Shown in pieces: positions 12,282 to 60,395 of a stretch of DNA of 64,000 nucleotides (positions are counted from its first letter, which is position 1; every line of letters begins with the position of its first letter). The stretch spans positions 205,197-269,196 of the forward strand of contig JACPGX010000001.1 in NCBI GenBank assembly GCA_016188865.1, in the 5' to 3' direction. This DNA is from Candidatus Nealsonbacteria bacterium (GTDB lineage: Bacteria > Patescibacteriota > Minisyncoccia > Minisyncoccales > MHMH01). The translations under genes were made by a program, and so were the position numbers. The notes under the pieces are model-generated. The model did no database searches, was not told the DNA's origin, and saw only the letters and a list, made by a program, of their open reading frames with translations.

Positions 12282-13684
12282 ACACGTTTATTGTACCACC
12301 AAATAAAGCCAAACAGAATGAAATAAAAAACTATCAGCCAAAGCCAGTGCAAATTGCCCACAGCCATGGAAACTAACGGCATTTTGCTAAACCAATCAAC
12401 AATTTTCGTAATATATGTCAAAGAAAGCCAAACGGGCCAAGACAATAAAAACCCAAGAGGTTGCAAGATAATACCGAAAATTGCAAAAATAAAAATTAAG
12501 ATAGTAATTGGAGCCAAAAAGGGAACTATTAAAATATTAACAACAGGACTCAATAAGGATATTCTGCCAAAATTATAAGCTAAAATCGGCAAAGTAAAAA
12601 CTTGGGCCGAAAGAGTAGCAGATAAAGTGGTTCTTAATGGAAAAACTTTTGGATTAGGTAAAAGCCTTAGCCAATTTGAAAAATACGGCTCTAAATAAAT
12701 AAGGCCTAAAATGGCTAAAAAAGAAAGCTGGAAACCTACGTCTTTCGTCAAGAGAAAAGGATTTTGAACAAGCATAAAAGTTGCCGCAAAAAATACCGCT
12801 CTTGAGCCGGATGACATGCGTCCTAATTTTTTAGCTAAAATAAAAATAACGGCCATAATAAAAGCCCTGACAGCTGAAGCCTGGGCTCCGATCATTAAAA
12901 TGTAAAGAAAAAGCAAAACTATCGAAATATAAAACGGCGCAAAGGAAGATATTATAGAAGAAATAATGGTTATATTCATTCCGGAAACCGCCGCAATATG
13001 GCGGGTGCCGGTAATATTGAGCTTGTCTTTCCATTCTCGGGAAATATTAGATTCTTGGCCGAAAACTAATGCCTCCAAAAAACCTTCTTGCGGCGGCGAA
13101 ATAAAAGAACCGGCGGTATCTCTAAATTTATTTTTAAAAGATAAAATAATTTCCATTATCGGGTTGCCAAACCCGGAACTCATAAACTCAATTTTTGGAA
13201 AACTCATTACTGCCGTAATGCCGTCTTTTTTAAGATAATCACGATAGTTAAAATCATCGAAAACCGGCGGCATTTCCAAACGGCCAATAATTTTTAGTCT
13301 ATCCCCATAATTATATTTCGGATACCTCCCCGCCGTCACCAAAATCGGGCGAGAACCGTTCTCGCCCGATTTTATCACAAGCTTTATGCTAGCAGGCCTG
13401 ACATCGGGTTCTTTAACCACGATTCCGACAAACTCGACATTCCCTTCTTGGGGATAAACAATTTTTGACTCCGCCATCTGATACCGCCAAATTCCCAAAA
13501 CTAAAAACAGTAAGCAAAATCCGCCCGTAGCCAGTTTTTTATAACGCCAAAAAATTGAAATTAAAAATACTCCAATAATTAAAAAACCCAGTAAAAATAA
13601 CTGGGGCATAAAAATAAATGAACTCGCAAAAATTCCTCCTACAAACGCCAGACAAAAATACAAAAATATCCGCGACTTAGTCAT
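12248..13684 (-). CDS. comEC: ComEC/Rec2 DNA-uptake channel protein (no metallo-beta-lactamase domain)
   Basis: N-terminal TM plus OB-like region, HIAAVSGMNITI, many TM segments. Confidence 0.85.
   Translation of the reverse strand: MTKSRIFLYFCLAFVGGIFASSFIFMPQLFLLGFLIIGVFLISIFWRYKKLATGGFCLLFLVLGIWRYQMAESKIVYPQEGNVEFVGIVVKEPDVRPASIKLVIKSGENGSRPILVTAGRYPKYNYGDRLKIIGRLEMPPVFDDFNYRDYLKKDGITAVMSFPKIEFMSSGFGNPIMEIILSFKNKFRDTAGSFISPPQEGFLEALVFGQESNISREWKDKLNITGTRHIAAVSGMNITIISSIISSFAPFYISIVLLFLYILMIGAQASAVRAFIMAVIFILAKKLGRMSSGSRAVFFAATFMLVQNPFLLTKDVGFQLSFLAILGLIYLEPYFSNWLRLLPNPKVFPLRTTLSATLSAQVFTLPILAYNFGRISLLSPVVNILIVPFLAPITILIFIFAIFGIILQPLGFLLSWPVWLSLTYITKIVDWFSKMPLVSMAVGNLHWLWLIVFYFILFGFIWWYNKRVWQVQLKKPGW
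13341..13373. repeat. REP-3-like hairpin variant in-frame in comEC (aaaatcgggcgagaac-c-gttctcgcccgatttt)
   Basis: 33-nt perfect palindrome translated KSGENGSRPIL. It shares the core cgagaaccgttctcg with REP-3. Confidence 0.85.
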
Positions 13685-13777: not shown

Positions 13778-13823
13778 AAAAAATCGTATTATTATTGCCA
13801 TGGCTTTAATTTTACGATTTTTT
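13778..13823. repeat. Imperfect palindrome aaaaaatcgta..gccatggc..tacgatttttt at the 3' end of the 13822-14400 gene
   Basis: Related to the palindrome at 14414-14449. Could act as a terminator and/or a second operator. Confidence 0.6.
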
Positions 13824-14400
13824 ATAAATTAAACGCTTTCCTTAGCTCTCTGTCATCGCCCAAATTTTCAGCTACCACCAAACGCAACTCTTTTTCTAGC
13901 AAACCAAAAAATGTCCGCAATAAATCTATCTCAGCCCGACAATCGAAAGGATAAACCCAAATGCTTTTCTGAAACTGATAAAATCCCAATGTCTTTAATT
14001 TACTTCTGAAAGCATCTCGATGAAACTTTTTAAGTTGGGCGATGTCAAACATTACCATTCTCCATTTATCGTCCCACTTCTTTGGTTTGGCAATTTTTAA
14101 ATTATCGATCTGCAGCCATCCGGCTTTTTTCTTTCCTTCCCTTGTCAGAGAAATGCATATTTGGTGATTATTTTCTTGAATATTAATTAACCCTTGTTTT
14201 CTAAAATGATAGAAAGTATCAGAAACTTTCTGCTTGGGATATTTTTTAAATTTTTGGTGATATTTTAAAAGATTGGTTAGAAAACAGGGTGAAGTAGCCG
14301 CAATAGACACCGCTCCAGCGATCATTAACCAGCGAAAGATGTCTTTCCCAATTTCCGATTTTGGTTTTGTAAAATAATATTTATATTTTCTTATACTCAT
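13822..14400 (-). CDS. PaaX-like / Cas2-fold domain protein with N-terminal TM and wHTH-like segment
   Basis: WRMVMFDI..LKTLGFYQFQKSIWVYP resembles the Cas2/PaaX_C ferredoxin-fold pattern. No SD sequence before the ATG. Confidence 0.5.
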   Translation of the reverse strand: MSIRKYKYYFTKPKSEIGKDIFRWLMIAGAVSIAATSPCFLTNLLKYHQKFKKYPKQKVSDTFYHFRKQGLINIQENNHQICISLTREGKKKAGWLQIDNLKIAKPKKWDDKWRMVMFDIAQLKKFHRDAFRSKLKTLGFYQFQKSIWVYPFDCRAEIDLLRTFFGLLEKELRLVVAENLGDDRELRKAFNL

Positions 14401-14413
14401 ATTAATAAATAAT

Positions 14414-14449
14414 ATCGTATAATTAACGCCATGGCAATAATTATACGAT
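14414..14449. promoter_or_regulatory. 36-nt near-perfect palindrome (atcgtataatta..gccatggc..taattatacgat); candidate operator over the promoter
   Basis: Lies 14-49 nt upstream of the ATG at 14400 and contains TATAAT-like boxes. Confidence 0.5.
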
Positions 14450-23973: not shown

Positions 23974-24009
23974 TGTGTACTATATATCACATATAGATGG
24001 AAAAGTCAA
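23958..24009. promoter_or_regulatory. Face-to-face promoters sharing one palindromic -10 box: TTGACA-17-TATATA-17-AGTCAA
   Basis: Plus strand: -35 at 23958-63 and -10 at 23981-86, driving mfd (ATG 23997). Minus strand: -35 is revcomp of 24004-09 with the same -10, driving the NUDIX leader. Confidence 0.55.
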
Positions 24010-26024
24010 CGGTGCCGGGTGTTAAATCGATTCTAATCGTCAGTATCAACCCCTACTTTTTAGACAGGGAGAATTTTTGGTTTGAAGAAAATATCAAACA
24101 AATACTGGAAGCGCGGAAAAATCAAACCTTCTTTCAAGATAATACCATATATGTAGACGTAGAAAAAAGCCCCGCCTTCGCCAAGGCTTCGGCGGGCAAG
24201 CAGAAAATTAAGCTTTCTGAATTTTTAAGAAAAATTGATGAAATGGGCTATGAAAAAGTTCAAAAGGTCTCCGAGCCCGGAGAATTTTCCCGCCAAGGAG
24301 GAATTATTGATATTTTCCCGTTAAATATAAATTGTGCCGTTAGAATTGAATTTTTCGGCAACTCAATAGAAAACATGGAAAAACTGCCCATTATTATTGA
24401 AAATGAAAAAGAAATCAAAGAAAGAATAAAAAATAAACTGAAAAGGCAGAAAATTTACTCGCAATTGGGAACATTAAAGCCGGGTGATTATTTGGTGCAT
24501 CTAGACCACGGCGTCGGAATTTACAGAGGTCGGACCTCCCAAGGAGGTCCGACCTCAAACGACTCAAACGATTACTACACATTGGAATATGCCCAGAACG
24601 ATAAACTCTATGTTCCGATTGGGCTGGAAAGAAAACTTTCAAGATATGTTGGATTTTCAGAGCCGAAAATATCGCGGCTAAGCTCGCCCGTCTGGATAAA
24701 CACCAAAAGAAAAATTAAAGAAGAAACTGAAAAACTAGCTAAAGAACTTTTGGAAATTTACGCCCAGAGAGAAATTTCAACTCGCCCATATTATATAGAA
24801 GATACGGAAATTGACGCCTTGCTGGCAAGTACTTTTGTTCACGAAGAAACTCCGGATCAAATCCAAGCCATGGAAGAAATTAAAAAAGATTTGGAAGAAA
24901 AAGAAGAGCCAATGGACAGAATTGTTTGCGGCGACGTGGGTTTTGGCAAAACTGAAATTGCCTTAAGGACCATTATTAAAGCGGTCAATTCCGGATATCA
25001 ATCGGCTTTGATTTGCCCAACCACTATTTTGGCCTCGCAGCATTGCCAGACTTTCCAAAAAAGAATTGGTGATCTTCCGATAAAAGTTGAATTATTAAGC
25101 CGTCTTCAATCAAAGAGGGAGCAGAAACAAATAATTCAAAATATCAAAGATGGCAAAACAGATATCGTTATAGGAACCCACCGCCTTTTATCAAATGACG
25201 TTAACTTTAAAAACTTAGGATTGCTGGTTATTGACGATGAACAAAGATTCGGAGTCAGGCAGAAAGAAAAATTAAAAAAAATAAGGACTTCCCTAGATGT
25301 TTTATCGCTTTCAGCCACGCCAATTCCCAGAACCCTCTACTTGGCCATGTCTTCTTTAAAAGATATCAGCATAATTCAAACGCCGCCTGCTCAACGGCTT
25401 CCGATTAAAACTTTGGTAAAACCATGGTCAAAAGAAATCATTAAAAAGGCAATTCAGGAAGAAATTTCGCGCAACGGCCAAGTTTATTACCTGCACAATC
25501 GCGTAGAAACTATTGAAACAGCAAAAAAATTGCTGGAAGATTTACTGCCGAAAGTAAAATTTGGAATTATCCACGGCAAAATGGAAGAAAAAAATTTAAT
25601 AAAGATAATGGATGATTTTACCAATAAAAAAATTGGCGTTTTAATCGCTACCACCATTATTGAAAACGGCCTGGACCTGCCCAATGTCAACACTTTAATT
25701 GCGGCCAATGCCGCCAAACTCGGACTTTCCCAGGCATATCAAATAAGAGGCAGAATCGGCAGGTCGCACATTCAGGCATTCGCTTATTTCTTGCATGGCG
25801 GCAATCTTTCTGAGCTAGCAAAGGAAAGATTAAGAGCTTTAAAAGAGGCGGAAGAGCTTGGTTCGGGATACCGAATTGCCATGAAAGATTTGGAACTTCG
25901 GGGCGCCGGCAACATTCTAGGAAAAGAGCAATCAGGCAACATCAACCATGTGGGACTGAATCTATATTGTCAAATGTTATCCGATGCGATTGAAAAACTG
26001 AAGGCTTACGATTATAATAAATAA
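23997..26024 (+). CDS. mfd: Transcription-repair coupling factor Mfd (short form, 675 aa)
   Basis: RNAP-interaction module PGDYLVHLDHGVGIY, helicase motifs DVGFGKTE and DDEQRFG, and a TRG-like region. Confidence 0.9.
   Translation: MEKSTVPGVKSILIVSINPYFLDRENFWFEENIKQILEARKNQTFFQDNTIYVDVEKSPAFAKASAGKQKIKLSEFLRKIDEMGYEKVQKVSEPGEFSRQGGIIDIFPLNINCAVRIEFFGNSIENMEKLPIIIENEKEIKERIKNKLKRQKIYSQLGTLKPGDYLVHLDHGVGIYRGRTSQGGPTSNDSNDYYTLEYAQNDKLYVPIGLERKLSRYVGFSEPKISRLSSPVWINTKRKIKEETEKLAKELLEIYAQREISTRPYYIEDTEIDALLASTFVHEETPDQIQAMEEIKKDLEEKEEPMDRIVCGDVGFGKTEIALRTIIKAVNSGYQSALICPTTILASQHCQTFQKRIGDLPIKVELLSRLQSKREQKQIIQNIKDGKTDIVIGTHRLLSNDVNFKNLGLLVIDDEQRFGVRQKEKLKKIRTSLDVLSLSATPIPRTLYLAMSSLKDISIIQTPPAQRLPIKTLVKPWSKEIIKKAIQEEISRNGQVYYLHNRVETIETAKKLLEDLLPKVKFGIIHGKMEEKNLIKIMDDFTNKKIGVLIATTIIENGLDLPNVNTLIAANAAKLGLSQAYQIRGRIGRSHIQAFAYFLHGGNLSELAKERLRALKEAEELGSGYRIAMKDLELRGAGNILGKEQSGNINHVGLNLYCQMLSDAIEKLKAYDYNK
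24526..24556. repeat. PE hairpin element, short-loop copy in-frame in mfd (gaggtcggacctcc-caa-ggaggtccgacctc)
   Basis: 14-bp perfect stem translated RGRTSQGGPTS. The arm sequence matches the copies at 9026 and 34384. Confidence 0.9.
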
Positions 26025-26030
26025 ATTATC

Positions 26031-26057
26031 AATCTTACGAGGCGAAGCCTCGTAAAT
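26031..26057. repeat. REP-2 hairpin, 5'-flank copy (ttacgaggc-gaa-gcctcgtaa)
   Basis: Lies 12 nt upstream of the RAYT-2 ATG. Confidence 0.9.
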
Positions 26058-26069
26058 TCGTAAATTTTA

Positions 26070-26783
26070 ATGAAGAGAGTAATATTCGCCAAAGATCAAA
26101 TCTATCATGTTTATAATCGCGGTGTAGAAAAACGAAATATCTTTTTAGATGATAAAGATTATTTTCGGTTTATTCACAATCTCTTTGAATTTAACGATGA
26201 AAAACCAGCAGAAAATATTTATTATAAACAACCAATGCTTCAGTCGCAGAAAATACAATCTTACGAGGCTTCGCCTCGTAAGATTAATATGCCTAGAAAA
26301 TTACTAGTAGAAATTATGGCATTTTGTCTGATGCCCAATCACTATCATTTATTGCTAAGACAAAAACAAGATAGGGGGATCACCAGATTTATGCAAAAAT
26401 TAGGTACTGGATATTCTATGTATTTTAATCAAAAGCACGAAAGAACCGGAATTTTATTCCAGGGACCGTTCAAGGCCATTTTAGTCGATAGGGAAACTTA
26501 TTTTTATTATTTACCATATTACATTCACTTTAATCCCCTAGATTTGATTGAGCCAGAATGGAGAAATGGCAAAATTAATAATTACAAAGAAGCCTTAAAT
26601 TTTCTGGAAAATTATCGCTGGTCAAGCCATCTTGATTATATTGGCAAGAAAAATTTTCCCTCGGTGACCCAACGGGAATTTCTTTTAGAATACCATCAAA
26701 ATGGAAACCGATATAAACAATCTATTGAAAATTGGCTAAAAGAAATACAACTAGAAAAAATAAAAGATATAATGCTGGAATAA
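26070..26783 (+). CDS. REP-associated tyrosine transposase-like protein (IS200/Y1 HUH family), paralog 2
   Basis: DQIYHVYNRG, FCLMPNHYHLLL, YYIHFNP. Confidence 0.85.
   Translation: MKRVIFAKDQIYHVYNRGVEKRNIFLDDKDYFRFIHNLFEFNDEKPAENIYYKQPMLQSQKIQSYEASPRKINMPRKLLVEIMAFCLMPNHYHLLLRQKQDRGITRFMQKLGTGYSMYFNQKHERTGILFQGPFKAILVDRETYFYYLPYYIHFNPLDLIEPEWRNGKINNYKEALNFLENYRWSSHLDYIGKKNFPSVTQREFLLEYHQNGNRYKQSIENWLKEIQLEKIKDIMLE
26257..26285. repeat. REP-2 hairpin, internal in-frame copy (loop inverted: ttc)
   Basis: aatcttacgaggc-ttc-gcctcgtaagatt, translated QSYEASPRKI. Confidence 0.9.
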
Positions 26784-26811
26784 ATCTTACGAGGCGAAGC
26801 CTCGTAAGATT
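26783..26811. repeat. REP-2 hairpin, 3'-flank copy
   Basis: aatcttacgaggc-gaa-gcctcgtaagatt, starting at the last base of the stop codon. Confidence 0.9.
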
Positions 26812-33586: not shown

Positions 33587-34648
33587 TTAGGAGATCCGTA
33601 AATTAGCTTCGGCTTTAATATTTTTTCTGACGTCTTTTCTGTGGAAATAAGCAGTTGCGGCCACCATTGCGGCATTGTCGGTGCACAAATTTTTTGGCGG
33701 AACCAAAAAATTTAGTTTATAGTTTAGAGTTTTTAGTTTATAGTCGAATTGTTTTCTTAACTCTTCATTCGCTGCTACGCCGCCTCCAAGAATGATTGAT
33801 TTTACTCCAAAATCCCTTGCTGCCTTTATGGTCTTATGCATCAAAACATCAATTATCGCCTGCTGAACTTCGTAACACATCTCTATTTTATCATAATTAC
33901 CCTTTTTTACTTTATATAATACGGCTGTTTTAAGACCGGAAAAACTAAAATCATAATTTTTTTGCCTAATCATCGGCCTCGGCAGTTGGTCGGAAACCCG
34001 ACGTCCGACCATTTTTGCGGCTGTGGCTGCAATAGCTGGGCCACCGGGATAGCCGAGGCCTAAAATCCTGGCAACCTTATCAAGGCATTCGCCAGCTGCG
34101 TCATCACGAGTTTCGCCTATTAATTTATATTTTCCGATAGCTTTCATCAAAACTAACTGCGTATGCCCACCCGACACCACCAAAGCCACCGCCGGAAAAA
34201 CTATTGAGGCCGGGCCTCCATAGTGTTCGCTAATGAAATTGGCGAGAATGTGCGCTTCGATGTGGTTGACTGAAATTAATGATTTTTTATATTTTTTTGC
34301 AATTTCTTTGGCAAAGTTGATCCCCTGCCATAAACAGGGTTCTAATCCTGGGCCGACGGTCACGGTGACGAAATCAATTTTTAGAGGTCCGACCTCCCGT
34401 AATATTTTTCGGGAGGTCGGACCTCCTAATATTCTCAAAACTTTTTCAAAGACAACCGGTAAATTCTTTTGATGCTCGCGTTTCGCTAAGAAGGGATAAA
34501 CCCCTCCATATTTTGCGTGGATTTTCACTTGCGAAGAGACTGTATTTGATATAATTTTGAAATTAGAATTTTTTACTTCCAGTAAAGCAATGGCTGTATC
34601 ATCGCAGGAAGTGTCAATTCCTAATATCTTAATATTTTGGGAGGCCAT
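33587..34648 (-). CDS. tsaD: tRNA N6-adenosine threonylcarbamoyltransferase TsaD
   Basis: GIDTSCDDT, VNHIEAH, CTDNAAM. Confidence 0.95.
   Translation of the reverse strand: MASQNIKILGIDTSCDDTAIALLEVKNSNFKIISNTVSSQVKIHAKYGGVYPFLAKREHQKNLPVVFEKVLRILGGPTSRKILREVGPLKIDFVTVTVGPGLEPCLWQGINFAKEIAKKYKKSLISVNHIEAHILANFISEHYGGPASIVFPAVALVVSGGHTQLVLMKAIGKYKLIGETRDDAAGECLDKVARILGLGYPGGPAIAATAAKMVGRRVSDQLPRPMIRQKNYDFSFSGLKTAVLYKVKKGNYDKIEMCYEVQQAIIDVLMHKTIKAARDFGVKSIILGGGVAANEELRKQFDYKLKTLNYKLNFLVPPKNLCTDNAAMVAATAYFHRKDVRKNIKAEANLRIS
34384..34425. repeat. PE hairpin element, in-frame copy inside tsaD
   Basis: gaggtccgacctcccg-10 nt-cgggaggtcggacctc, translated GGPTSRKILREVGP. This gives about 11 extra residues relative to E. 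coli TsaD as recalled. Confidence 0.9.
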
Positions 34649-50576: not shown

Positions 50577-50607
50577 AAAACTGACGAGAACCGTTCTCGT
50601 CAGTTTT
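50577..50607. repeat. REP-3 hairpin, 3'-flank copy (aaaactgacgagaac-c-gttctcgtcagtttt)
   Basis: Ends one base before the RAYT-3 stop codon. Preceded by a partial duplicate, ctgacgaaaa. Confidence 0.9.
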
Positions 50608-51333
50608 TTATTCGATGGCAACACGTTGAGAATCAGCTAATTCTTTTTTGAACTGAAGCCAATCGTTAACGAATCTTTGCCCTTCGCCCGCTCCGCCGAC
50701 TGTTTCAAATAAAAACTCTCTGCTGGTTACTGAAGGAAAATTCCTCTTGCCTAAATAGTCAGAATAACTTGACCATCGGTAATTTTCTAAAAATTCTATT
50801 ATTTCTTGCAATTTCCTGCCGCTAATTCCCCTTTCCTTCCAATTCTGAACTAAAATTGCCACTGGGTTTGTATGAATATAAACGAAAACTGTTATTAATT
50901 GTTTATCATCTTTAACGTGGACTATTTTATATTTTCCCTGAAACAGGTGGCCACTTCTTTTATATTTTTTATTATAATATCCGCCGTATCCCGCCCCAAT
51001 TTTTCTCATAAACTTGCTTATTCCTCCATTTCTTAACTGTCTTACCAGCAGATGCGCGTGATTCGGCATCAAACAAAACGCTAAAATCTCCAATAAACAT
51101 TCCCTGCCCGTATGTCTTTTATACGAACTATCTAAACTGACGAGAACGGTTCTCGTCAGTTTTTGTTCTTGACGATAGTATGAAGAAGTAGGTTTTTCAT
51201 CATTGAATTCAAATAAATCATGAATCATTCTAAAATAATCTTTTTGATCTTTGAAAAGCTTTAACCCTTCTACGGCTCTAATAACGATGTGATAAATTTC
51301 GCCGTTTACTAATGGTGGTCGTTTTATTGGCAT
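50608..51333 (-). CDS. REP-associated tyrosine transposase-like protein (IS200/Y1 HUH family), paralog 3
   Basis: GEIYHIVIRA, FCLMPNHAHLLV, VYIHTNP. Confidence 0.85.
   Translation of the reverse strand: MPIKRPPLVNGEIYHIVIRAVEGLKLFKDQKDYFRMIHDLFEFNDEKPTSSYYRQEQKLTRTVLVSLDSSYKRHTGRECLLEILAFCLMPNHAHLLVRQLRNGGISKFMRKIGAGYGGYYNKKYKRSGHLFQGKYKIVHVKDDKQLITVFVYIHTNPVAILVQNWKERGISGRKLQEIIEFLENYRWSSYSDYLGKRNFPSVTSREFLFETVGGAGEGQRFVNDWLQFKKELADSQRVAIE
51134..51162. repeat. REP-3 hairpin, internal in-frame copy (centre g)
   Basis: aaactgacgagaac-g-gttctcgtcagttt, translated KLTRTVLVSL. Confidence 0.9.
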
Positions 51334-51364
51334 AAAACTGACGAGAACCGTTCTCGTCAGTTTT
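51334..51364. repeat. REP-3 hairpin, 5'-flank copy
   Basis: Starts at the base next to the ATG (51331-33), leaving no room for an SD sequence. Confidence 0.9.
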
Positions 51365-51401
51365 ATTATAACGGAATAAATTTAAATGAAAAGCCCTGAG
51401 C

Positions 51402-52846: not shown

Positions 52847-53983
52847 TTACTTTAAAAATTTTCTTGAAAGAACTTCCAGCTGGACTTCGGAGGCGCCTTC
52901 ATAAAGAGTTAAAGCTCTGGCGTCGCGGAACATTCTCTCAACCGGAGTTTCATCCATGTAGCCCATGCCGCCGTGAATCTGTAAAGCGTCATAAGTTATT
53001 TTCTGAACCATCTCGGTGGCAAACCATTTGGCTCTGGCTGCAGCCAATTTGACATCATGGCCTTGGTCTTTTTGCCAGGCAGCATACCAGGTAAGCCAAC
53101 GGCTGGCTTCAATTTGGGCTTCCATTTTAGCTAATTTATGCTGGCAATCTTGAAGATCAATCAATCTCTTGCCAAACATCTGACGATTTCTGGCGTAGTT
53201 TACGGCTTCTTCAAAAGCGCCTTGAGCTATACCTACGGCTTGGGCCGCGATATTGATTCTGCCGCCATTTAAAGTCTGCATAGCCACTTTCCAGCCGTCG
53301 CCTTCCTGGCCAAGCATATTGGCATGGCTGACTTGGCAGTCAGTCAAAACTATCGGGGAAGTCGGCGAACAGTGAAGCCCCATTTTCTTTTCAATTTTCG
53401 GCACTGAAAATCCCGGAGTGGAAGTTTCCACGATGAAAGCGGAAAGCCCATGATGAGGATGATCGCTGGTTCTGGCTATTAAAACGCAAACTTTCGCTTT
53501 AGCGACATTGGTAATGAATTGCTTGGTACCATTAATCACCCAACCATTATCATTTCTTACAGCCCGAGTTTTGATTCTCGTCACATCAGAGCCGGCATCC
53601 GGCTCTGTTAAAGCATAACATCCCAATGCCTTGCCTTGAGCCAAAGAAGCAAGATATTTCTTTTTTTGATCTTCATTGCCCCACTCCAAAATGGGAGCTC
53701 CGGATAAGGAATTATTGGCTGACATAATCAAAGCAAGCGAAGCCCAAACTCTGGCCAACTCTTCTTCGGCAATGGCATAAGCTAAAATATCCGAGCCCAT
53801 GCCGCCGTACTGCTCTGGAACAAATATACCCATAAAGCCCATTTCGCCGAGTTTTTCAACAAGCTCTTTGGGAAATTTTCCTTTTTCTTCAAATTCTTTA
53901 ATCCTTGGCCTGACTTCTTTTTCGGCAAATTCTCTCATCAAGTTGCGGATACCCGCATGCTCTTCCGACAACCGAAAATCCAT
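52847..53983 (-). CDS. Acyl-CoA dehydrogenase
   Basis: YALTEPDAGSD, and QIHGGMGY..YEGASEVQ. Confidence 0.93.
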   Translation of the reverse strand: MDFRLSEEHAGIRNLMREFAEKEVRPRIKEFEEKGKFPKELVEKLGEMGFMGIFVPEQYGGMGSDILAYAIAEEELARVWASLALIMSANNSLSGAPILEWGNEDQKKKYLASLAQGKALGCYALTEPDAGSDVTRIKTRAVRNDNGWVINGTKQFITNVAKAKVCVLIARTSDHPHHGLSAFIVETSTPGFSVPKIEKKMGLHCSPTSPIVLTDCQVSHANMLGQEGDGWKVAMQTLNGGRINIAAQAVGIAQGAFEEAVNYARNRQMFGKRLIDLQDCQHKLAKMEAQIEASRWLTWYAAWQKDQGHDVKLAAARAKWFATEMVQKITYDALQIHGGMGYMDETPVERMFRDARALTLYEGASEVQLEVLSRKFLK

Positions 53984-53994
53984 TTCCGCCTCCC

Positions 53995-55914
53995 TTATAA
54001 AGATTTCTCTATCAATTCCAGCAAGTCAATCACTGAAATCTCTTCGCCCTGTAGCATTTGCAGACACCAGGGACAGCTGACCGCCGCTATATTGGCTTCC
54101 GTTTCCTTAGCATCTTTAAGGCGCAGTTGGTTAACTCTTTTTTGAGGATCTTCCTCTTGCCACATTCTGCCGCCGCCTCCGCCGCAGCATAAACTTTGTT
54201 TTTTGGAACGCTTCATTTCAACTATTTTTTCAGCGCAAACGGCTTTTAGAATTTCTCGGGGAGCTTCAAAAATACCATTATAACGGCCAAGATAGCAAGA
54301 ATCATGATAGGTTATTTTACCAGATATTTTCTTGCTTACTTTAAGTTTTCCTTCTTTGATGAGCTTGGCTATGAATTCGGTGTAATGATAAACTGCGAAA
54401 TCAGCGCCAAAATCAGGATATTCATTTTTTAAAGTATTAAAGCAGTGAGGGCAAGCGGTAATAATTTCTTTCACGCCGTAACGATTCAAAATTTCAATAT
54501 TCTTTTTGGCCAATTCCTGAAATAAATATTCGTTGCCCATTCTTCTTGCCGGGTCCCCGCAGCAAAGCTCTTCAGAGCCAAGTATGCCGAAGTTAACCCC
54601 GGCTTTTTCCAATATTTTAACCAGAGAAACAGCTGCTTTGGTATTCTGCTCATTCAAAGCCGCGGTGCAGCCGACCCAGTAAAGAACATCTATTGCTCTA
54701 TCTGAAGAAAGCGTTTTGACCTTTAAATCCTTTGCCCAATCAGTTCTTGAAAGATTGGTTCCCCTCCAAGGATGTCCCCGGGCCTCAATGCTTTCCAAGG
54801 CTCGCATAGCTGAATCGGGCAACTGGGATTTTTCAAGCACTAAATTGCGCCGCATTTCCACAATTTTATCAATATGGGTATTTAAAACAGGACACTGCTC
54901 TTGGCAGGCGCGGCAGGTAGTGCAAGACCAGAGATCATCTTCCTTAATTGCTCCGCCAATTAAATTATCGTTATTTTGATTCAGCAGAGGCTTTTTTAGA
55001 TTTTGAATCATTTCTTTTGGGTTAAGCGATTTTCCGCTCAAATAGGCCGGACAAGCTTCCTGACAGCGGCCGCAGACAACGCAGGCGTAAAGATCGAGCA
55101 GCTGCTTTTGGCTGAAATCTTCAATCTTTGCCGCGCCGAAAGTTTCCGTATTTTCCAAATCAAGAGTTTCCAGGGCCCCTTTGGGCCGTGAACTTTTCAG
55201 AAAAATATTGAGAGGGCCGGCTAAAATGTGAAGATATCTGGAATAAGCTATGAAAACCAAAACGAACAAAACCGTCAGCCAATGCGCCCAGAAAAAAGTC
55301 ATGTTGGCTATTGCCAGCGCGGACAAGCTGAAATCCTTAAAAAAATAACTTAGGGCTGAACTAAGCGGCGGTAAAAGAGTGCTTTCGCTGGTAGCTTCTT
55401 TCAGTAAATGCGTTACGGGATGCAGAAAAACTGTGACTAAGATAATCAATGCCTCAAAAGTCTGCTCTCCTTTAAGCCGAGGCGGTCGCACAACATATCT
55501 TCGCAGAATTCCCCAAAGGGCTGCCAGCATGATAAAAGGAGCTGCCATGTCCATCACCCAAGAGTAGTAAAAGAAAAGCTTGGTGTTTTCCATTGCTCCT
55601 GACAAACCGAAGCCTGCTCCGATGATGATATATAGAAAATAATATCCGACAAAAATCAGAAATCCCCATGCCATAAAAATATGGCCGAGGCCGGCTCTGT
55701 CTTTCAGAGATATGGACTTTAACTGGCGCCATTGCCCGACAAGATAAGCTAAAACAAGCAATATCCTTTTGAGCGCGCTATTCTTTAAGTTATGATTTTC
55801 TTTCTTACCCCGGCTCAAAAAACCGTAGAGCCGGTATATTCTGAAAAAGAAAAGGCCGAAAGCTATCAGGGTCAAACCCCAGAAAAAAATATAGAACATC
55901 GAATCCCTCCGCAT
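53995..55914 (-). CDS. Membrane FeS oxidoreductase (HdrD/GlpC-like: TM domain + 2x[4Fe-4S] + two CCG domains)
   Basis: About 5 N-terminal TM segments, CVVCGRCQEACP, CTTCRACQEQCP, and CCG motifs. Confidence 0.8.
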   Translation of the reverse strand: MRRDSMFYIFFWGLTLIAFGLFFFRIYRLYGFLSRGKKENHNLKNSALKRILLVLAYLVGQWRQLKSISLKDRAGLGHIFMAWGFLIFVGYYFLYIIIGAGFGLSGAMENTKLFFYYSWVMDMAAPFIMLAALWGILRRYVVRPPRLKGEQTFEALIILVTVFLHPVTHLLKEATSESTLLPPLSSALSYFFKDFSLSALAIANMTFFWAHWLTVLFVLVFIAYSRYLHILAGPLNIFLKSSRPKGALETLDLENTETFGAAKIEDFSQKQLLDLYACVVCGRCQEACPAYLSGKSLNPKEMIQNLKKPLLNQNNDNLIGGAIKEDDLWSCTTCRACQEQCPVLNTHIDKIVEMRRNLVLEKSQLPDSAMRALESIEARGHPWRGTNLSRTDWAKDLKVKTLSSDRAIDVLYWVGCTAALNEQNTKAAVSLVKILEKAGVNFGILGSEELCCGDPARRMGNEYLFQELAKKNIEILNRYGVKEIITACPHCFNTLKNEYPDFGADFAVYHYTEFIAKLIKEGKLKVSKKISGKITYHDSCYLGRYNGIFEAPREILKAVCAEKIVEMKRSKKQSLCCGGGGGRMWQEEDPQKRVNQLRLKDAKETEANIAAVSCPWCLQMLQGEEISVIDLLELIEKSL

Positions 55915-55966
55915 GTATTTTCAAAGTACCGCATCTAATGACTTCTAACACGAAGAAAAAACTCGG

Positions 55967-55996
55967 TCAACAAAAAAGGACGCTAGGCGTCCTTTG
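55967..55996 (-). terminator. Terminator/-35 cassette, copy 1 (caacaaaaaaggacgctaggcgtcctttg)
   Basis: On the minus strand this reads AAAGGACGC-CUA-GCGUCCUUUUUU, followed directly by GTTGAC. Confidence 0.75.
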
Positions 55997-56004
55997 GTTA
56001 TTGT

Positions 56005-56163
56005 TCATCTTTTAACCGGAACGGGCACTTTTTCGGGCATTGGCGTTTTTTCCGGTACGGGGCTCGAAGGCTCCGGTTTGGTTCTGGGAACTCTTCTGGG
56101 AATTCTTACCGGTTCTTCTGTAGGAATAGTTTCCCTACGGTTATTTTCTGCGGAATCAAGCAT
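56005..56163 (-). CDS. Pro-rich 52-aa ORF (not in the supplied ORF track)
   Basis: AGGAGG lies 6 nt upstream of ATG 56161-63. The ATG overlaps the upstream stop (AATGCTTGA). Terminator lies 10 nt downstream. Confidence 0.4.
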   Translation of the reverse strand: MLDSAENNRRETIPTEEPVRIPRRVPRTKPEPSSPVPEKTPMPEKVPVPVKR

Positions 56164-57517
56164 TTTCTTCCTCCTTTTTTTGCTGATAACGCTTTTGGTA
56201 TTCTACGCTTTGGTCTGGAAAATTTTTGTAATCTATGAAAGGCTCTCTTTCTTGGTCTGGAGGCAAAAATTCAGAACAAATCTTTTTGCCTTCCAAAACT
56301 AAACGGATATCAGTGGCCTTATCAACAACCAATCTTTGCACTTCGCGAATAAACTTATTGCCCAGAGGAACATTACCTTCATCGGCTTCCCTTTGAAGAA
56401 TAACTGCCTCAATTTTCCTAAGGTAGGGCAAAAGCCGAGACCAGGAATTGTCTATTGCATATAAATCATTTAACCATTCTTTGTCAGGGTAAAGGCATTC
56501 TTCTAAAAGATACTTAAGGGATTCTTTTCTGGCCAAATTGTATTTTTCCTGTCCGGGAATCTCATAAATAGCTTCGGGATTAAGCAGGGAGTTAAACTTT
56601 CTTAAAATTTGTACCAATTCCGCTTCAAAATTTTCGTACAGCGAAATGATAGTTGAATGAACTGGCGTCACGTTAAGCGAGCTTCTTTCTGGCTGGGGAT
56701 ATTTCCAGTAAGCAGTGGTTAAAAGCAAGCCCAAATTAAGATATTGCAAAAAATAAATCAATTGAGCCAAGTTTCCCTGGCTTATTTCCGGAGATACATG
56801 GAAAAGATAATCAATCCGATGCCGAGCTATATTAATTTCATTCAATGCTTTAACTTCTGCGCCCCTGATGACTAAGCCGTAAGAAGCTCCATGGTCTCTT
56901 TTGGGCACATCTTTAAATGTTGTAAAATGATCGAGGTTAACAGAAATAATAAACAAAGCTAAGGCAATAAACTTGGCGCGATGCTGATATTTATTAAAAC
57001 CAGTATCAAAACCAACTGATATTTGTATTTCGCCTGCCTTAATGAGCCTTGCTTTTATTTGGCTGGCCAATGCTTGGGAATCGACTGTCGGCTGAAAACA
57101 GTGCTTTTCTCTTCCTTGGCCGGGATAAATTTTAGCCCCTAAAGTCACAAAAGATAAAAGCTGCCGGCTATTATTTAGAGAAGAAAATATGATTGAACCT
57201 GGCCAGTAAGGCGAATTAGCTAAAGCTTGGGCTGCTGCCTCACGGACACCAGGGTCTGGATCATATTTTGAGGCCTTCTTTAATGACGGGATTGCTTCCA
57301 GAGAGCCGATTACTCCCAAGGCCTCGGCTGCTTTCTCGCGGACAAAATAATACTGATCTGTTTCCAAAACTTCGATTAAAGCTTTGGTTGCTTCCGAAGA
57401 GCCGATTACTCCCAAGGCCTTAGCTGCTTCGTAACGGCTAAAATTATCTCCCTTGTTTAATTGATGCAAAAGACTTTTAATACTGGCCTTACTCGCCTTT
57501 TCTTTCTTATTTTCCAT
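56156..57517 (-). CDS. HEAT-repeat (PBS-lyase type) protein with ~330-aa unknown C-terminal domain
   Basis: Repeated AAxALGVIGSxEA units. Start trimmed to MENKKEK, because the longer ORF runs through its own promoter. Confidence 0.65.
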   Translation of the reverse strand: MENKKEKASKASIKSLLHQLNKGDNFSRYEAAKALGVIGSSEATKALIEVLETDQYYFVREKAAEALGVIGSLEAIPSLKKASKYDPDPGVREAAAQALANSPYWPGSIIFSSLNNSRQLLSFVTLGAKIYPGQGREKHCFQPTVDSQALASQIKARLIKAGEIQISVGFDTGFNKYQHRAKFIALALFIISVNLDHFTTFKDVPKRDHGASYGLVIRGAEVKALNEINIARHRIDYLFHVSPEISQGNLAQLIYFLQYLNLGLLLTTAYWKYPQPERSSLNVTPVHSTIISLYENFEAELVQILRKFNSLLNPEAIYEIPGQEKYNLARKESLKYLLEECLYPDKEWLNDLYAIDNSWSRLLPYLRKIEAVILQREADEGNVPLGNKFIREVQRLVVDKATDIRLVLEGKKICSEFLPPDQEREPFIDYKNFPDQSVEYQKRYQQKKEEENA

Positions 57518-57557
57518 CGCCGTCATTCCTCCACAAATTTCAATGTACTCTAATAAC

Positions 57558-57586
57558 TTAATAGCACTAAGGGAAAACCCGGTCAA
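57558..57586 (-). promoter_or_regulatory. Promoter TTGACC-17-TATTAA
   Basis: The -35 box directly follows the REP-3-like hairpin. Confidence 0.6.
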
Positions 57587-57590
57587 CAAA

Positions 57591-57621
57591 AAAACTGACG
57601 AGAACCATTCTCGGCAGTTTT
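57591..57621. repeat. REP-3 hairpin, solo degenerate copy (two mismatches) acting as a terminator
   Basis: aaaactgacgagaac-c-attctcggcagtttt. Confidence 0.8.
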
Positions 57622-57670
57622 AATTATTTATAAAGGCACTCTAAAATTCATTTAAGGAGGGTTGCTACTG

Positions 57671-57958
57671 CTACCACCCAGAGTTGCTGCTGCTACTACC
57701 CCAAAAATAAACGTCACTAAGTTTTATTATTACGAAGGATATAAGACTGCTAAAAAAAGAAATGCCTCCGACGAATATTATGATATTACTTATGTTATGG
57801 AGAAGTTCGCTCTGGAACATGAACCTTAATACTGCGCCCACACCAATCAGGAATACATTTGAAAATATCAAGATATAAAATATCTTATCTATCTTCTTGT
57901 TCATCCTCTTATAGTTCTCGTAAATTTGCCGTGATTCTTCATCAATTTCATGGGCCAT
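57671..57958 (-). CDS. Small 2-TM membrane protein (95 aa)
   Basis: AAGGAGGTG RBS. Promoter TTGACA-17-TAAGAT at 58004-58032. Confidence 0.6.
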   Translation of the reverse strand: MAHEIDEESRQIYENYKRMNKKIDKIFYILIFSNVFLIGVGAVLRFMFQSELLHNISNIIIFVGGISFFSSLISFVIIKLSDVYFWGSSSSNSGW

Positions 57959-58041
57959 ATTATATTCACCTCCTTTTTAATGTGCCGCATAATTATAGAG
58001 TACATCTTAGTTCAACGCAAAAAATCTGTCAAGACATCGTA

Positions 58042-58087
58042 TTACGAGACCCGGACTCGTAAAAAATTACGAGTCCGGATCTCGTAA
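58042..58087. repeat. Inverted REP doublet (REPIN-like): ttacgag-acccgga-ctcgtaa / ttacgag-tccggat-ctcgtaa
   Basis: The two hairpins are reverse complements of each other apart from one base. Their stems equal the REP-2 stem. Confidence 0.8.
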
Positions 58088-58104
58088 AACTAGCGGAAAC
58101 CGAA

Positions 58105-58134
58105 ACAACAAAAAAGGACGCTAGGCGTCCTTTG
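58105..58134 (-). terminator. Terminator cassette, copy 2
   Basis: Hairpin identical to copy 1. The -35 part is degenerate (TTGTTG). Confidence 0.7.
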
Positions 58135-58185
58135 ATTGTTTATTCTACTGATCGAGAGTATTTGGCGGCCTTTTGTTTTTACCCT

Positions 58186-58500
58186 TCAGTCAACCAAGGC
58201 TCTTCGGCTTCGATGGCGTCCCAATAAATCGTACAATTTCTGAATTGGTTTTGAAAAAAATCGGAACCCCCTATCTCTTAATTCAATCTCTCTCCCCTCA
58301 TTCTCAACGCGCAGGCACAAATCCGGGGAGGTAGATACCCAGCCACAAATACTTTCACCATGGTAGTATCTCAACGACAAACCATAACCTTCAAATTCGG
58401 TATGCCACACATCAGACCACGCGTCACCCCCTCGAAGCCACTGAAGTTCTCCGCTCCTAGTTTTTTCAATGACCATCTTCAGTAGTCTTGAATTATTCAT
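58186..58500 (-). CDS. Hypothetical 104-aa protein
   Basis: GAGGAGGAG RBS. Promoter TTGACA-17-TATATT at 58536-58564. Confidence 0.55.
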   Translation of the reverse strand: MNNSRLLKMVIEKTRSGELQWLRGGDAWSDVWHTEFEGYGLSLRYYHGESICGWVSTSPDLCLRVENEGREIELRDRGFRFFSKPIQKLYDLLGRHRSRRALVD

Positions 58501-58577
58501 TCTCTCCTCCTCTCATTTTTTTTACACCATATGACAATATATACCCATTCATTGAATATGTCAAATCGAATGGAATC

Positions 58578-58607
58578 GTCAACAAAAAAGGACGCTAAGC
58601 GTCCTTT
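58578..58607 (-). terminator. Terminator/-35 cassette, copy 3 (loop taa); contains the etfA stop codon
   Basis: The 5' arm encodes the EtfA C-terminus ..TKDA. GTTGAC follows. Confidence 0.75.
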
Positions 58608-59605
58608 GTGAGTTCTTTTAATTTTTCAATAAATGCCGGTAAAACTTCCTGCCACCGACCGACTATTCCGAAATCAGCTTCTTTAAAGATATTGGCTTCC
58701 GGATCGCTATTAATTGCCACAATAACTTTGGCTCCGGAGCAGCCAGCCAAATGCTGACTCGACCCGGAAACTCCGACAACGATGTAAAGATCGGGGACGA
58801 CAATTTTGCCGGTAAGGCCGATCTGCAGACTAGCAGGCATCCAACCCTGATCGCAAGGAGGCCGACTGGCGCCCACTGCTCCTTTTAGCACCCTAGCTAA
58901 TTCCTCTAATTTCTTAAAACCTTCCGGCCCGCCTATGCCCCGGCCGCCGCAAACAATCACTTTAGCTGCTTCTAGTTTAACTCCGGAGTATTCTTCGATT
59001 TTCTTGCCAATGACCTTTGTTTTTAATTCAGCTTGTAGTACGGCCGGATCTATTATAATGCATTCTATCACCTGACCTGTTCTCTTTTCATCTCTTGGCA
59101 AAGGAGAAAATGCTTTCTGCCTGACTGTGGCCATTTGCGGAAAGAAATCCGAAGCAAAGACTGCCCTGGCACTGCCGCCGTAAACCGGCTTTGTCATCAA
59201 AAGATTTTTTTTAGCAGAATCAATGCTTAGCTCGAGGCAATCGGTCACTAAGCCAACTCTCAACCTGAAAGCTAATCTGGGGGCTAAGTCTCTGCCCATA
59301 GCCGTCTGGCCAAAAAGCAAAATATTTGGAAGCCCCATGCTCACCATTTGTTCCAGTGCATACAGATAAGTTTCTGCCTGATAATTATCGAGCAAAGAAT
59401 TCTGGACAAGGTAAACTCTATCTGCTCCCAAAGCAATAACTTCTTGAGAAAAATCGCTTGCTCTGCTGCCAAATAAAACACAGGAAACTTTTTCTTTAAG
59501 GCTATCGGCAAGCAATCTAGCGCATGCTAAAAGTTCTGCGGTAACTGAATTTAATTTTCCTTCGCTAACTTCTCCTAAAACCATTATTCCTTTATATTCT
59601 CTCAT
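58595..59605 (-). CDS. etfA: Electron transfer flavoprotein alpha subunit
   Basis: C-terminal FAD-binding region GVSGSSQHLAG..INSDP. Confidence 0.93.
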   Translation of the reverse strand: MREYKGIMVLGEVSEGKLNSVTAELLACARLLADSLKEKVSCVLFGSRASDFSQEVIALGADRVYLVQNSLLDNYQAETYLYALEQMVSMGLPNILLFGQTAMGRDLAPRLAFRLRVGLVTDCLELSIDSAKKNLLMTKPVYGGSARAVFASDFFPQMATVRQKAFSPLPRDEKRTGQVIECIIIDPAVLQAELKTKVIGKKIEEYSGVKLEAAKVIVCGGRGIGGPEGFKKLEELARVLKGAVGASRPPCDQGWMPASLQIGLTGKIVVPDLYIVVGVSGSSQHLAGCSGAKVIVAINSDPEANIFKEADFGIVGRWQEVLPAFIEKLKELTKDA

Positions 59606-59615
59606 AACTGCCTCC

Positions 59616-60395
59616 TCAAACCGCCTTTGCTTCGCGCAGTTTTAAAGCAAGCTTTGCGCCGGCTTCGGCCGGATTGTCAGCCTTCACCATTTGGCACTGT
59701 TTTTCCTTGATTGGCTGAAAGACTTTAAGGAGTTTAGAATGCGGAACGTCCAAGCTAATATCGGTTTTATTCCAAATAGTGGGCGTTTTCTTTTTGGCGG
59801 CCAGCACTCCCTTAACGCTGGCATACCTCGGATCTCCCAGTTCATTGGTTACGGTAATTAAAGCGGGCAAAATAGTTTCAATGGTTTCGTAACCGTCGGG
59901 AAGCAGGCGCTCTATCCTGACCTTAGTGTCAACTATTTCAATTTGTTTGGCTAAAGTTACTGCAGGAATTCCCAAAAATTCGGCAATGCCTATGCCGACT
60001 TGGCCGTTATCCCAATCAGCTGCCTGCCTGCCGCAAAGAATTAAATCGTATCTGCCGATTTTTCTAATAGCTGCTGCCAAAGCATGAGCCGCAGCCCAGC
60101 TATCAAGCCCATCAAAAGCCTCGTCTTCCAAAAGAATTAATTCGTCAGCTCCCATGGCTAAAGGTTTTTTAACCACTTCTCTGACAAAATTATTTCCTAA
60201 GCTCAAAATGGTAATTTTGCCTGATAATTTATCTTTAATGCGTAAAGCCGCTTCAACAGCGTGCATGTCAAAGGGACTGATAACCGAAGCTGTTCCGGAC
60301 GGCGTAATTATTTTTTTACCGGTTTCGTCTATCTTTAAATTCGAAGGCGGAATTTCAGGGTCAATTATCTGCTTGCAGCAAACAATTATATCCAT
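59616..60395 (-). CDS. etfB: Electron transfer flavoprotein beta subunit
   Basis: IVCCKQ..DP and LILCGRQAADWDNGQVG. Confidence 0.93.
   Translation of the reverse strand: MDIIVCCKQIIDPEIPPSNLKIDETGKKIITPSGTASVISPFDMHAVEAALRIKDKLSGKITILSLGNNFVREVVKKPLAMGADELILLEDEAFDGLDSWAAAHALAAAIRKIGRYDLILCGRQAADWDNGQVGIGIAEFLGIPAVTLAKQIEIVDTKVRIERLLPDGYETIETILPALITVTNELGDPRYASVKGVLAAKKKTPTIWNKTDISLDVPHSKLLKVFQPIKEKQCQMVKADNPAEAGAKLALKLREAKAV

Follow-up and report, generated by a model that had tools for sequence, protein, structure and literature searches.

We analyzed a stretch of 64,000 nucleotides (64 kb) from a genome assigned to Candidatus Nealsonbacteria, hereafter the window, and focused on a region of approximately 2.6 kb in which a short terminator-like hairpin, termed D3 here, is present in three copies and all genes lie on the minus strand. 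Along this strand, the gene order is etfB, etfA, four enclosed open reading frames (ORFs) for a 104-amino-acid (aa) protein, a 95-aa protein, a HEAT-repeat protein and a 52-aa Pro-rich product, and then fadF, which encodes a FadF-type membrane FeS oxidoreductase, and an acyl-CoA dehydrogenase (ACAD) gene. The explanation that we consider probable is that D3 is a locally duplicated and selectively maintained terminator, similar in design to repetitive extragenic palindromic (REP) sequences, that insulates added genes. It represents a local variant of familiar repeat and terminator biology and not a new kind of element.

The 29-mer CAACAAAAAAGGACGCTARGCGTCCTTTG was found exactly three times in the window, at positions 55968-55996 (D3a), 58106-58134 (D3b), and 58580-58608 (D3c), and no further match with up to 3 mismatches was detected there; the number expected from shuffled sequences was 0. 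On the minus strand, each copy reads AAAGGACGC-YTA-GCGTCCTTT followed by TTTTTTG, corresponding to a perfectly paired hairpin of 21 nucleotides (nt), with a 9-bp stem containing 5 GC pairs and a 3-nt loop, that is followed by six T residues. The folding energy of the copies is between -14 and -19 kcal/mol (z from -3.1 to -4.6), and all three were detected by a terminator scan; Rfam produced nothing at the gathering score in the region 55700-58800. All copies are oriented with the transcription of the preceding gene; D3a and D3b lie between genes, D3c extends over the etfA stop codon, and the distance from the preceding stop codon is 0 nt for the etfA copy, 52 nt for the middle copy, and 9 nt for the copy at 55968. 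Like known intrinsic terminators, whose stems measure about 5 to 14 bp and whose loops measure 3 to 8 nt, D3 has a GC-rich stem of 9 bp and a loop of 3 nt, followed by U6, just past a stop codon on the transcribed strand, and the enclosure of a stop codon in the hairpin, as seen in D3c, is frequent in compact genomes. Its assignment in shape and position as an intrinsic (Rho-independent) terminator is well founded, with termination deduced from this anatomy. Ordinary terminators that neighbor each other, however, are not identical in sequence, whereas the three D3 copies agree at 28 to 29 of 29 nt, tail included.

The copies differ in their loops and in the bases that follow them. D3c forms its hairpin at 58587-58607, with the loop TTA, T6, and GTTGAC, at the end of etfA (58595-59605), which is the final gene of the meaB-etfB-etfA unit (etfB, 59616-60395). 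The 5' arm of this hairpin encodes the last EtfA residues, K-D-A, and the stop codon TAG extends across the loop and the 3' arm. The hairpin of D3b, at 58113-58133, has the loop CTA, T6, and GTTGTT, and is located past the stop codon of the 104-aa gene; that of D3a, at 55975-55995 and past the stop codon of the 52-aa ORF, has the loop CTA, T6, and GTTGACC. The CTA variant common to D3a and D3b points to a copying event. The first-pass annotation of this DNA had reported three repeat copies, one of them containing the etfA stop, and both statements are confirmed, with a shift of 1 to 2 nt in its coordinates. It had furthermore described each copy as a hairpin, U6, and GTTGAC, with a -10 box 17 nt downstream in two of the three. 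Hairpin and U6 are present in all three copies, but GTTGAC only in two. The -10 boxes exist but are weak: TAGAAG follows D3a, and after D3c a separate TTGACA-17-TATATT, which begins 18 nt further on, is far better.

This latter sequence is the promoter-like site of the 104-aa gene (58536-58564, 11/12 matches). Further sites on the minus strand precede the 95-aa gene (58004-58032, TTGACA-17-TAAGAT, 10/12 matches), the HEAT gene (57558-57586, TTGACC-17-TATTAA, read from the sequence), and fadF (55942-55970, TTGACC-17-TAGAAG). All four enclosed ORFs have Shine-Dalgarno sequences, but no promoter of its own was found for the 52-aa ORF, despite a strong Shine-Dalgarno sequence (AAGGAGG); at best, this ORF is translationally coupled to the HEAT gene. 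Of the earlier proposal that each gene has its own promoter and a strong ribosome binding site, the presence of Shine-Dalgarno sequences at all four ORFs and of near-consensus promoters at the 104-aa and 95-aa genes is confirmed, but not a promoter for the 52-aa ORF. The T-tract of D3a adjoins the -35 box of fadF. The fadF -35/-10 site is positionally orthologous to TTGACA-17-TAAAAA/TAGAAA in the two closest FadF relatives, contigs L015 (69% aa identity) and L052 (64%), in which the leader after the -10 box is GCACTTTGAAAATA; the counterpart in the window is TTGACC-17-TAGAAG ... GTACTTTGAAAATA. Because promoter and leader are conserved in both relatives, the TTGACC that touches the T-tract of D3a is very probably the genuine -35 box of fadF. 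D3b, in which GTTGTT stands in place of GTTGAC, is not followed by a -35 box.

The upstream regions of fadF and of the HEAT gene are related to each other. The HEAT promoter and leader, which make up roughly 75 nt behind the hairpin upstream of this gene, are paralogous to the region upstream of fadF, as shown by an alignment whose score was reached in 2 of 2,000 shuffles. For the 12-mer TTTTTTGTTGAC, three exact matches were counted in the window, compared to 0.03 expected, and one of these follows the other hairpin of the region, at 57591-57621. A promoter module common to the flanks after D3b and D3c was considered on the basis of a by-eye likeness and was rejected, since between 735 and 1,997 of 2,000 shuffles scored equally; only the fadF/HEAT pair was significant. 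Equally discarded, as too short to count, was the likeness of TTTTTTGCCGGGT, after the palindrome at 50577, to TTTTTTGTTGACCGGGT, at 57591.

Information on the age of the copies was obtained from the closest EtfA (P0218, 73% aa identity), which comes from L051, an ENA contig of 1,369 nt that has 81% nt identity with the window over 1,363 aligned columns. Its etfA stop carries AAAGGACGCTTAGCGTCCTTTTTTGTTGAC, and the contig terminates with ...AAAGAACTCTTAAAGGACGCTTAGCGTCCTTTTTTGTTGACCGGG. The 30-nt segment composed of hairpin, T6, and GTTGAC is identical in the window and in L051, whose loop is TTA as in D3c, and represents the second-longest identical run of the alignment, so that D3c is on a par with the most highly conserved coding stretches. 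The C-terminus KDA was observed only in the window protein and P0218; seven other aligned EtfA proteins (332 to 333 aa) end with (A/S)G, and P0298 (335 aa) ends with AEQKQ. We judge the etfA copy to be ancestral, predating D3a and D3b, because of this identical segment at the etfA stop of L051. After GTTGAC, L051 continues with CGGG; the upstream flank of the HEAT gene is identical to this, the fadF flank shares 3 of the 4 bases, and the etfA copy of the window continues with GATT. This flank suggests, on 4 informative bases at the end of the L051 contig, that DNA was added just 3' of an ancestral terminator and that the hairpin was duplicated.

The source genome is outside the collections that can be scanned, and the D3 copy count covers the window. 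A census with a 25-mer of D3 and with its 21-nt core was made in other genomes. Among 185,579 species genomes, the 25-mer was found in 9 Shewanella and 1 Acinetobacter genomes, with a single copy in each. The 21-nt core matched 28 loci in JGI metagenomes and 2 in IMG/VR, with unrelated flanks, and none of the contigs that carry it was related to the window in tblastx comparisons. Because these matches sit singly in unrelated contexts, the hairpin appears to be a generic terminator solution that recurs independently in unrelated taxa. Other copies of the D3-bounded segment or of the enclosed genes were not found in protein searches. In the population from which the window derives, the same gene order was present in all of 7 independent contigs from several runs, one of which matches 12.7 kb of the window at 100% identity, and no presence/absence polymorphism was observed among them. 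As the arrangement is identical in these contigs, it is real and fixed, neither recently imported nor an assembly artifact.

The independent emergence of the same core hairpin in unrelated taxa could be taken to mean that the three repeats arose by chance or convergence, or else that they were generated during assembly. Chance is effectively refuted by identities of 29/29 and 28/29 that include the tail, with 0 expected in shuffles, and an artifact is opposed by the identical sequence in independent assemblies from several runs, so that we give this explanation next to no credence. The two functions that the first-pass annotation had offered for the repeats also find no counterpart in these data. 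As to boundaries of portable expression units, the 25-mer and core matches elsewhere are single and unrelated, and none is located in the other 61 kb of the window; as to recombination sites, no recombinase is adjacent and the 7 contigs are not polymorphic. No recombinase domain was identified among the called genes between 51.3 and 64 kb, which are metabolic or orphan genes. Independent Logan contigs of this population break at palindromes, namely, L011 at window position 51335 (family D1), L054 at approximately 137 (D5), and L012 at 58134, one base before the D3b hairpin. These breaks suggest repeat- or hairpin-induced interruptions of the assembly, or a minor variant at D3b.

The genome that surrounds D3 is rich in palindromes. 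The window contains 25 perfect hairpins with a stem of at least 8 bp, most of which belong to multicopy families, and its general style is that of perfect palindromes flanked by A and T runs. There are three genes for Y1 (IS200-like), RAYT-like transposases, at 162-899, 26070-26783, and 50608-51333 (loci including palindromes, 162-949, 26028-26811, and 50577-51366). Their proteins score 36 to 45 bits against an NCBIfam RAYT cutoff of 80, and the term RAYT-like denotes this position below the cutoff. Each gene is associated with its own palindrome family (D1, D5, or D9) in three copies, located before the start, in-frame within the ORF, and abutting the stop codon. The internal copy lies in a variable linker (aa ~58 to 72) that separates the N-terminal YHxxxR strand from the HUH motif, and at two loci out of three its orientation is opposite to that of the outer copies. 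The Y1 gene at 50608-51333 on the minus strand (50577-51364 with palindromes) is the nearest DNA enzyme to the region; its D1 palindromes, with the sequence AAAACTGACGAGAACSGTTCTCGTCAGTTTT, are at 51334-51364 before the start, at 51133-51163 in-frame, and at 50577-50607 abutting the stop codon.

Satellite palindromes away from their own RAYT were detected at 57591 and 13341. The first of these, a terminator-like palindrome of the D1 family (57591-57621, minus strand), is located 49 nt past the stop codon of the 95-aa gene and is followed by TTTGTTGACC. The region also contains a REPIN-like inverted doublet (58039-58090, 52 nt, no strand assigned) of TTACGAG-NCCGGN-CTCGTAA units, with 24-bp arms that are 92% complementary, a folding energy of -39 kcal/mol (z -9.2), and an outer stem that recurs in the palindromes belonging to the Y1 gene at 26070-26783. 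The REP doublet and the additional REP copy that had been noted in this region are both substantiated by these two features. Together with D3, which is built in the same manner, with a GC stem and a 3-nt loop between an A-run and a T-run, the region harbors three families of REP-like palindromes. Palindromes were also observed within other genes of the window. A D12 palindrome at 34384-34433 is in-frame in tsaD (33587-34648) and adds approximately 12 aa (LRILGGPTSRKIL) that are absent from the solved TsaD of T. maritima; a palindrome half-copy (24526-24556) lies in a 675-aa ORF (23997-26024), and the D1-like copy at 13341-13373 lies in a 478-aa ORF (12248-13684). In addition, a 192-aa gene (13822-14400; PaaX central, Cas2-like domain) is located between 44-nt inverted repeats (13783-13826 and 14406-14449) that are 86% complementary.

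REP/BIME and REPIN-RAYT systems of Escherichia coli and Pseudomonas consist of short extragenic palindromes with roles in termination and mRNA stability (PMC3116915, PMC3333891, PMC3733652); REPs are located mostly downstream of genes and are recognized by a GTAG (or CGTC) tetranucleotide at one end (PMC3733652). It could thus be that D3 is a true REP/REPIN mobile palindrome, moved in trans by a RAYT whose gene lies at another place in the genome, in which case three independent intergenic insertions would have occurred and termination would be a by-product. This is compatible with the presence of three RAYT-like genes with cognate palindromes in the same 64 kb, with the satellites described above, with the shared architecture, with the position of D3 downstream of genes, and with the two other palindrome families in the same 2.6 kb. 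The Y1 genes of the window, however, are flanked by D1, D5, and D9, and never by D3. D3 was found three times within 2.6 kb and not at all in the other 61 kb, and its copies are single, direct, and of a loop asymmetry that is constant relative to the tail, in contrast to the doublet at 58039-58090. It begins with CAAAGG... and ends with ...CCTTTTTTGTTG, so that no GTAG or CGTC tag is located at an end; CGTC occurs only within the stem. Moreover, the etfA copy is fixed at the orthologous site of a relative with 81% nt identity, and no insertion polymorphism was seen among the 7 contigs. We therefore regard this origin of D3 as unlikely.

A more far-reaching variant would be that the D3-bounded units are cassettes that Y1 (RAYT-like) transposases move or capture on terminator-shaped hairpins, which would amount to a hairpin-bounded delivery of promoter, gene, and terminator beside existing terminators, based on single-stranded DNA and with the ancestral etfA hairpin as landing site. 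In descriptive terms, there is a resemblance to IS200/IS605 elements and palindrome-associated transposable elements (PATEs), since the pairs D3c/D3b and D3b/D3a place direct hairpins at segment ends and Y1 transposases are encoded in the genome. Unlike for such elements, neither a second D3-bounded segment nor an empty site was found, none of the transposases in the window has D3 as its palindrome, and the gene order is the same in 7 contigs. We consider this scenario improbable.

The four genes enclosed by the outer D3 copies had been described as unrelated to the surrounding pathway; the ORFs exist, and they appear to be lineage-specific orphans or near-orphans. For the protein encoded by the 104-aa ORF (58186-58500), two relatives with 69% and 51% identity and with conserved columns were found among 1.84 billion representative proteins, and it thus seems to represent a real but very rare family. 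It had no match in Pfam, NCBIfam, PHROG, or PADLOC, and its AlphaFold model has a pLDDT of 53. The 95-aa ORF (57671-57958) encodes a small protein with two hydrophobic segments, identified by inspection, and produced only weak, subthreshold matches to transmembrane-type families. The HEAT-repeat gene (56156-57517) encodes 453 aa, of which the N-terminal ~125 correspond to HEAT repeats. No full-length homologue was found among 5.8 billion proteins, with matches restricted to the N-terminal repeats, and the C-terminal ~330 aa matched no Pfam family. The 52-aa ORF (56005-56163) overlaps the HEAT stop codon (ATGCTTGA). Whether it is coding is uncertain, as it is mirrored on the plus strand by a Gly-rich ORF of 102 aa (55994-56302) that begins inside the hairpin. 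Searches of Pfam, NCBIfam, PHROGs, and PADLOC for functions of the enclosed genes revealed nothing beyond the HEAT repeats and the weak transmembrane-type matches, and no phage or viral relatives and no link to defense systems were found for any of the four.

The region had initially been interpreted as an insertion that splits an ETF-ACAD cluster. A comparison with relatives did not reveal any uninterrupted junction between etfA and the FeS oxidoreductase gene; the two operons were nonadjacent in 6 of 6 sampled relative contexts. Upstream of fadF there is a divergent isochorismatase gene in L015 and a gene for the MCM small subunit in L052, and in two Dehalococcoidia-type fadF contexts the neighbors are unrelated housekeeping genes. 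The nearest EtfA relatives on long contigs (63 to 64% aa identity) show the order prfA-prmC-etfB-etfA, followed by a convergent EF-G gene. The pair of fadF (53995-55899, with Fer4 and CCG domains) and the ACAD gene directly after it (52847-53983) is kept in L015, and the L052 contig ends 117 nt past fadF. The contexts sampled in relatives speak against conservation of an etfA-FeS cluster, and the notion that a cluster was split, an assumption, is not supported. At positions 170-205 of L052, the stop codon of the MCM small-subunit gene is situated in the loop of an AAAGGAC...GTCCTTT hairpin with the same outer stem as D3; this could be a sign that the lineage as a whole tends to place stop codons within terminator hairpins.

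Several observations weigh against our preferred explanation of a duplicated terminator that insulates added genes. The GC content of the enclosed genes, overall and at third codon positions (GC3), is within the background range of the window. Since their composition equals the background, these genes appear to be old or native and not recent imports, and the suggestion that the insert arrived from outside is without a compositional signature. No relative with an empty site was found, and the view that genes were added rests on their orphan status and on the 4 informative bases of L051. Termination by D3 and the use of the promoters are both deduced from consensus, and a dispersed D3 family with its own RAYT may exist elsewhere in the genome.

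It is thus conceivable that nothing was inserted, that the four genes are old residents, and that gene conversion or concerted evolution of neighboring terminators made the hairpins identical. The background composition of the genes, the fixation of the arrangement in the population, the separation of the etfBA and fadF units in every sampled relative, and the strong constraint on the hairpin would all agree with such a history. It is, on the other hand, difficult to reconcile with the lack of homologues of the four genes in the nearest relatives and nearly anywhere else, with an L051 flank after GTTGAC that is unlike the etfA flank of the window and like that of the HEAT/fadF type, and with the CTA variant common to two copies, and we regard it as distinctly unlikely.

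Comparison with other repeat systems permitted further alternatives to be evaluated. Integron cassettes resemble the D3 units in that a palindrome stands at the 3' end of small, often orphan genes in one orientation. The hairpin could accordingly be a site-specific recombination site analogous to attC, with circular one-hairpin cassettes joined successively at the etfA hairpin. The direct repeats, each at the 3' end of a unit, and the hybrid nature of the outer copies are as expected in this case, D3c combining the ancestral left flank with TTA and D3a combining CTA with a right flank of the ancestral type. However, attC sites measure at least 55 nt, are imperfect and boxed, require IntI, and accompany promoterless cassettes, and none of this holds for the D3 units. 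The D3 hairpin is perfect, with 21 nt and no R''/L''/L'/R' boxes; neither GTTGACC nor GTTGTTT conforms to GTTRRRY; no integrase gene was identified among the called genes between 51.3 and 64 kb; no gene cassette was found elsewhere; and the units bear their own promoters, those of the 104-aa and 95-aa units being near consensus. Such an origin is in our opinion very improbable. Correia elements (CREE/NEMIS) of Neisseria are small intergenic repeats that lend promoter or terminator function and alter the expression of flanking genes; they measure 100 to 155 bp, are bordered by terminal inverted repeats of 26 bp, duplicate a TA target, and carry an IHF site, whereas D3 is a 21-nt hairpin with a tail. 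The integron and Correia readings were both ruled out on anatomy. Rickettsia palindromic elements (RPE) are comparable in that palindromes reside in-frame in coding genes, as in tsaD and the RAYT-like genes, and in that D3c overlaps the last codons of etfA. They differ in size, with 100 to 150 bp for RPE, and D3c supplies just the last three codons and the stop.

According to the explanation by local duplication, the lineage would have gained three transcription units between meaB-etfBA and fadF-ACAD, each with its own promoter, for the 104-aa protein, the 95-aa protein, and the HEAT protein together with the 52-aa product. Two of the added units would finish in new copies of the etfA terminator, both with the CTA loop, and the third in the neighboring RAYT-family palindrome; the promoter and leader of fadF would, in addition, have been copied to the HEAT unit. 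The hairpins are predicted to block read-through, which would leave each unit under the control of its own promoter. The direct contact of the T-tract with the next TTGAC -35 box would reflect tight packing and not a designed fusion, and the tract may also act as a UP-like A/T tract. Copying most likely occurred via the palindrome itself; recombination or template switching at the hairpin, the action of the resident Y1 transposases, or gene conversion may have been involved. Because the 29-nt identity would be held by selection on hairpin and T-tract, possibly with gene conversion, it says little on the age of the copies.

The metabolic genes of the window raise an issue of their own. Although the metagenome-assembled genome is labeled Candidatus Nealsonbacteria, a member of the candidate phyla radiation (CPR), the window encodes MeaB-EtfBA, the FadF-type oxidoreductase, an acyl-CoA dehydrogenase, an acetoacetyl-CoA-synthetase-like enzyme, and a POR subunit, and the nearest homologues of these enzymes (56 to 64%) are labeled Dehalococcoidia or Chloroflexota. 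Either the label of the genome is wrong, or this metabolism is unusual for Candidatus Nealsonbacteria. A NifU-type gene at 4156-5631 appears to be interrupted by an intein/LAGLIDADG domain, as indicated by weak Pfam matches and by the annotation of the matching Logan contig L054.

If the proposed explanation is correct, a compact genome would close off newly added genes by re-using a single, proven terminator hairpin. As the hairpin is conserved across lineages at 81% nt identity, its identity among copies should not be read as evidence for recent insertion, and the annotation of such repeats as insertion scars or ends of mobile elements would call for a census. The wider context is perhaps worth more than the hairpin itself, namely, a CPR-labeled genome with several RAYT-like loci, in which palindromes are found before, inside, and after the gene, and also in-frame in housekeeping genes.

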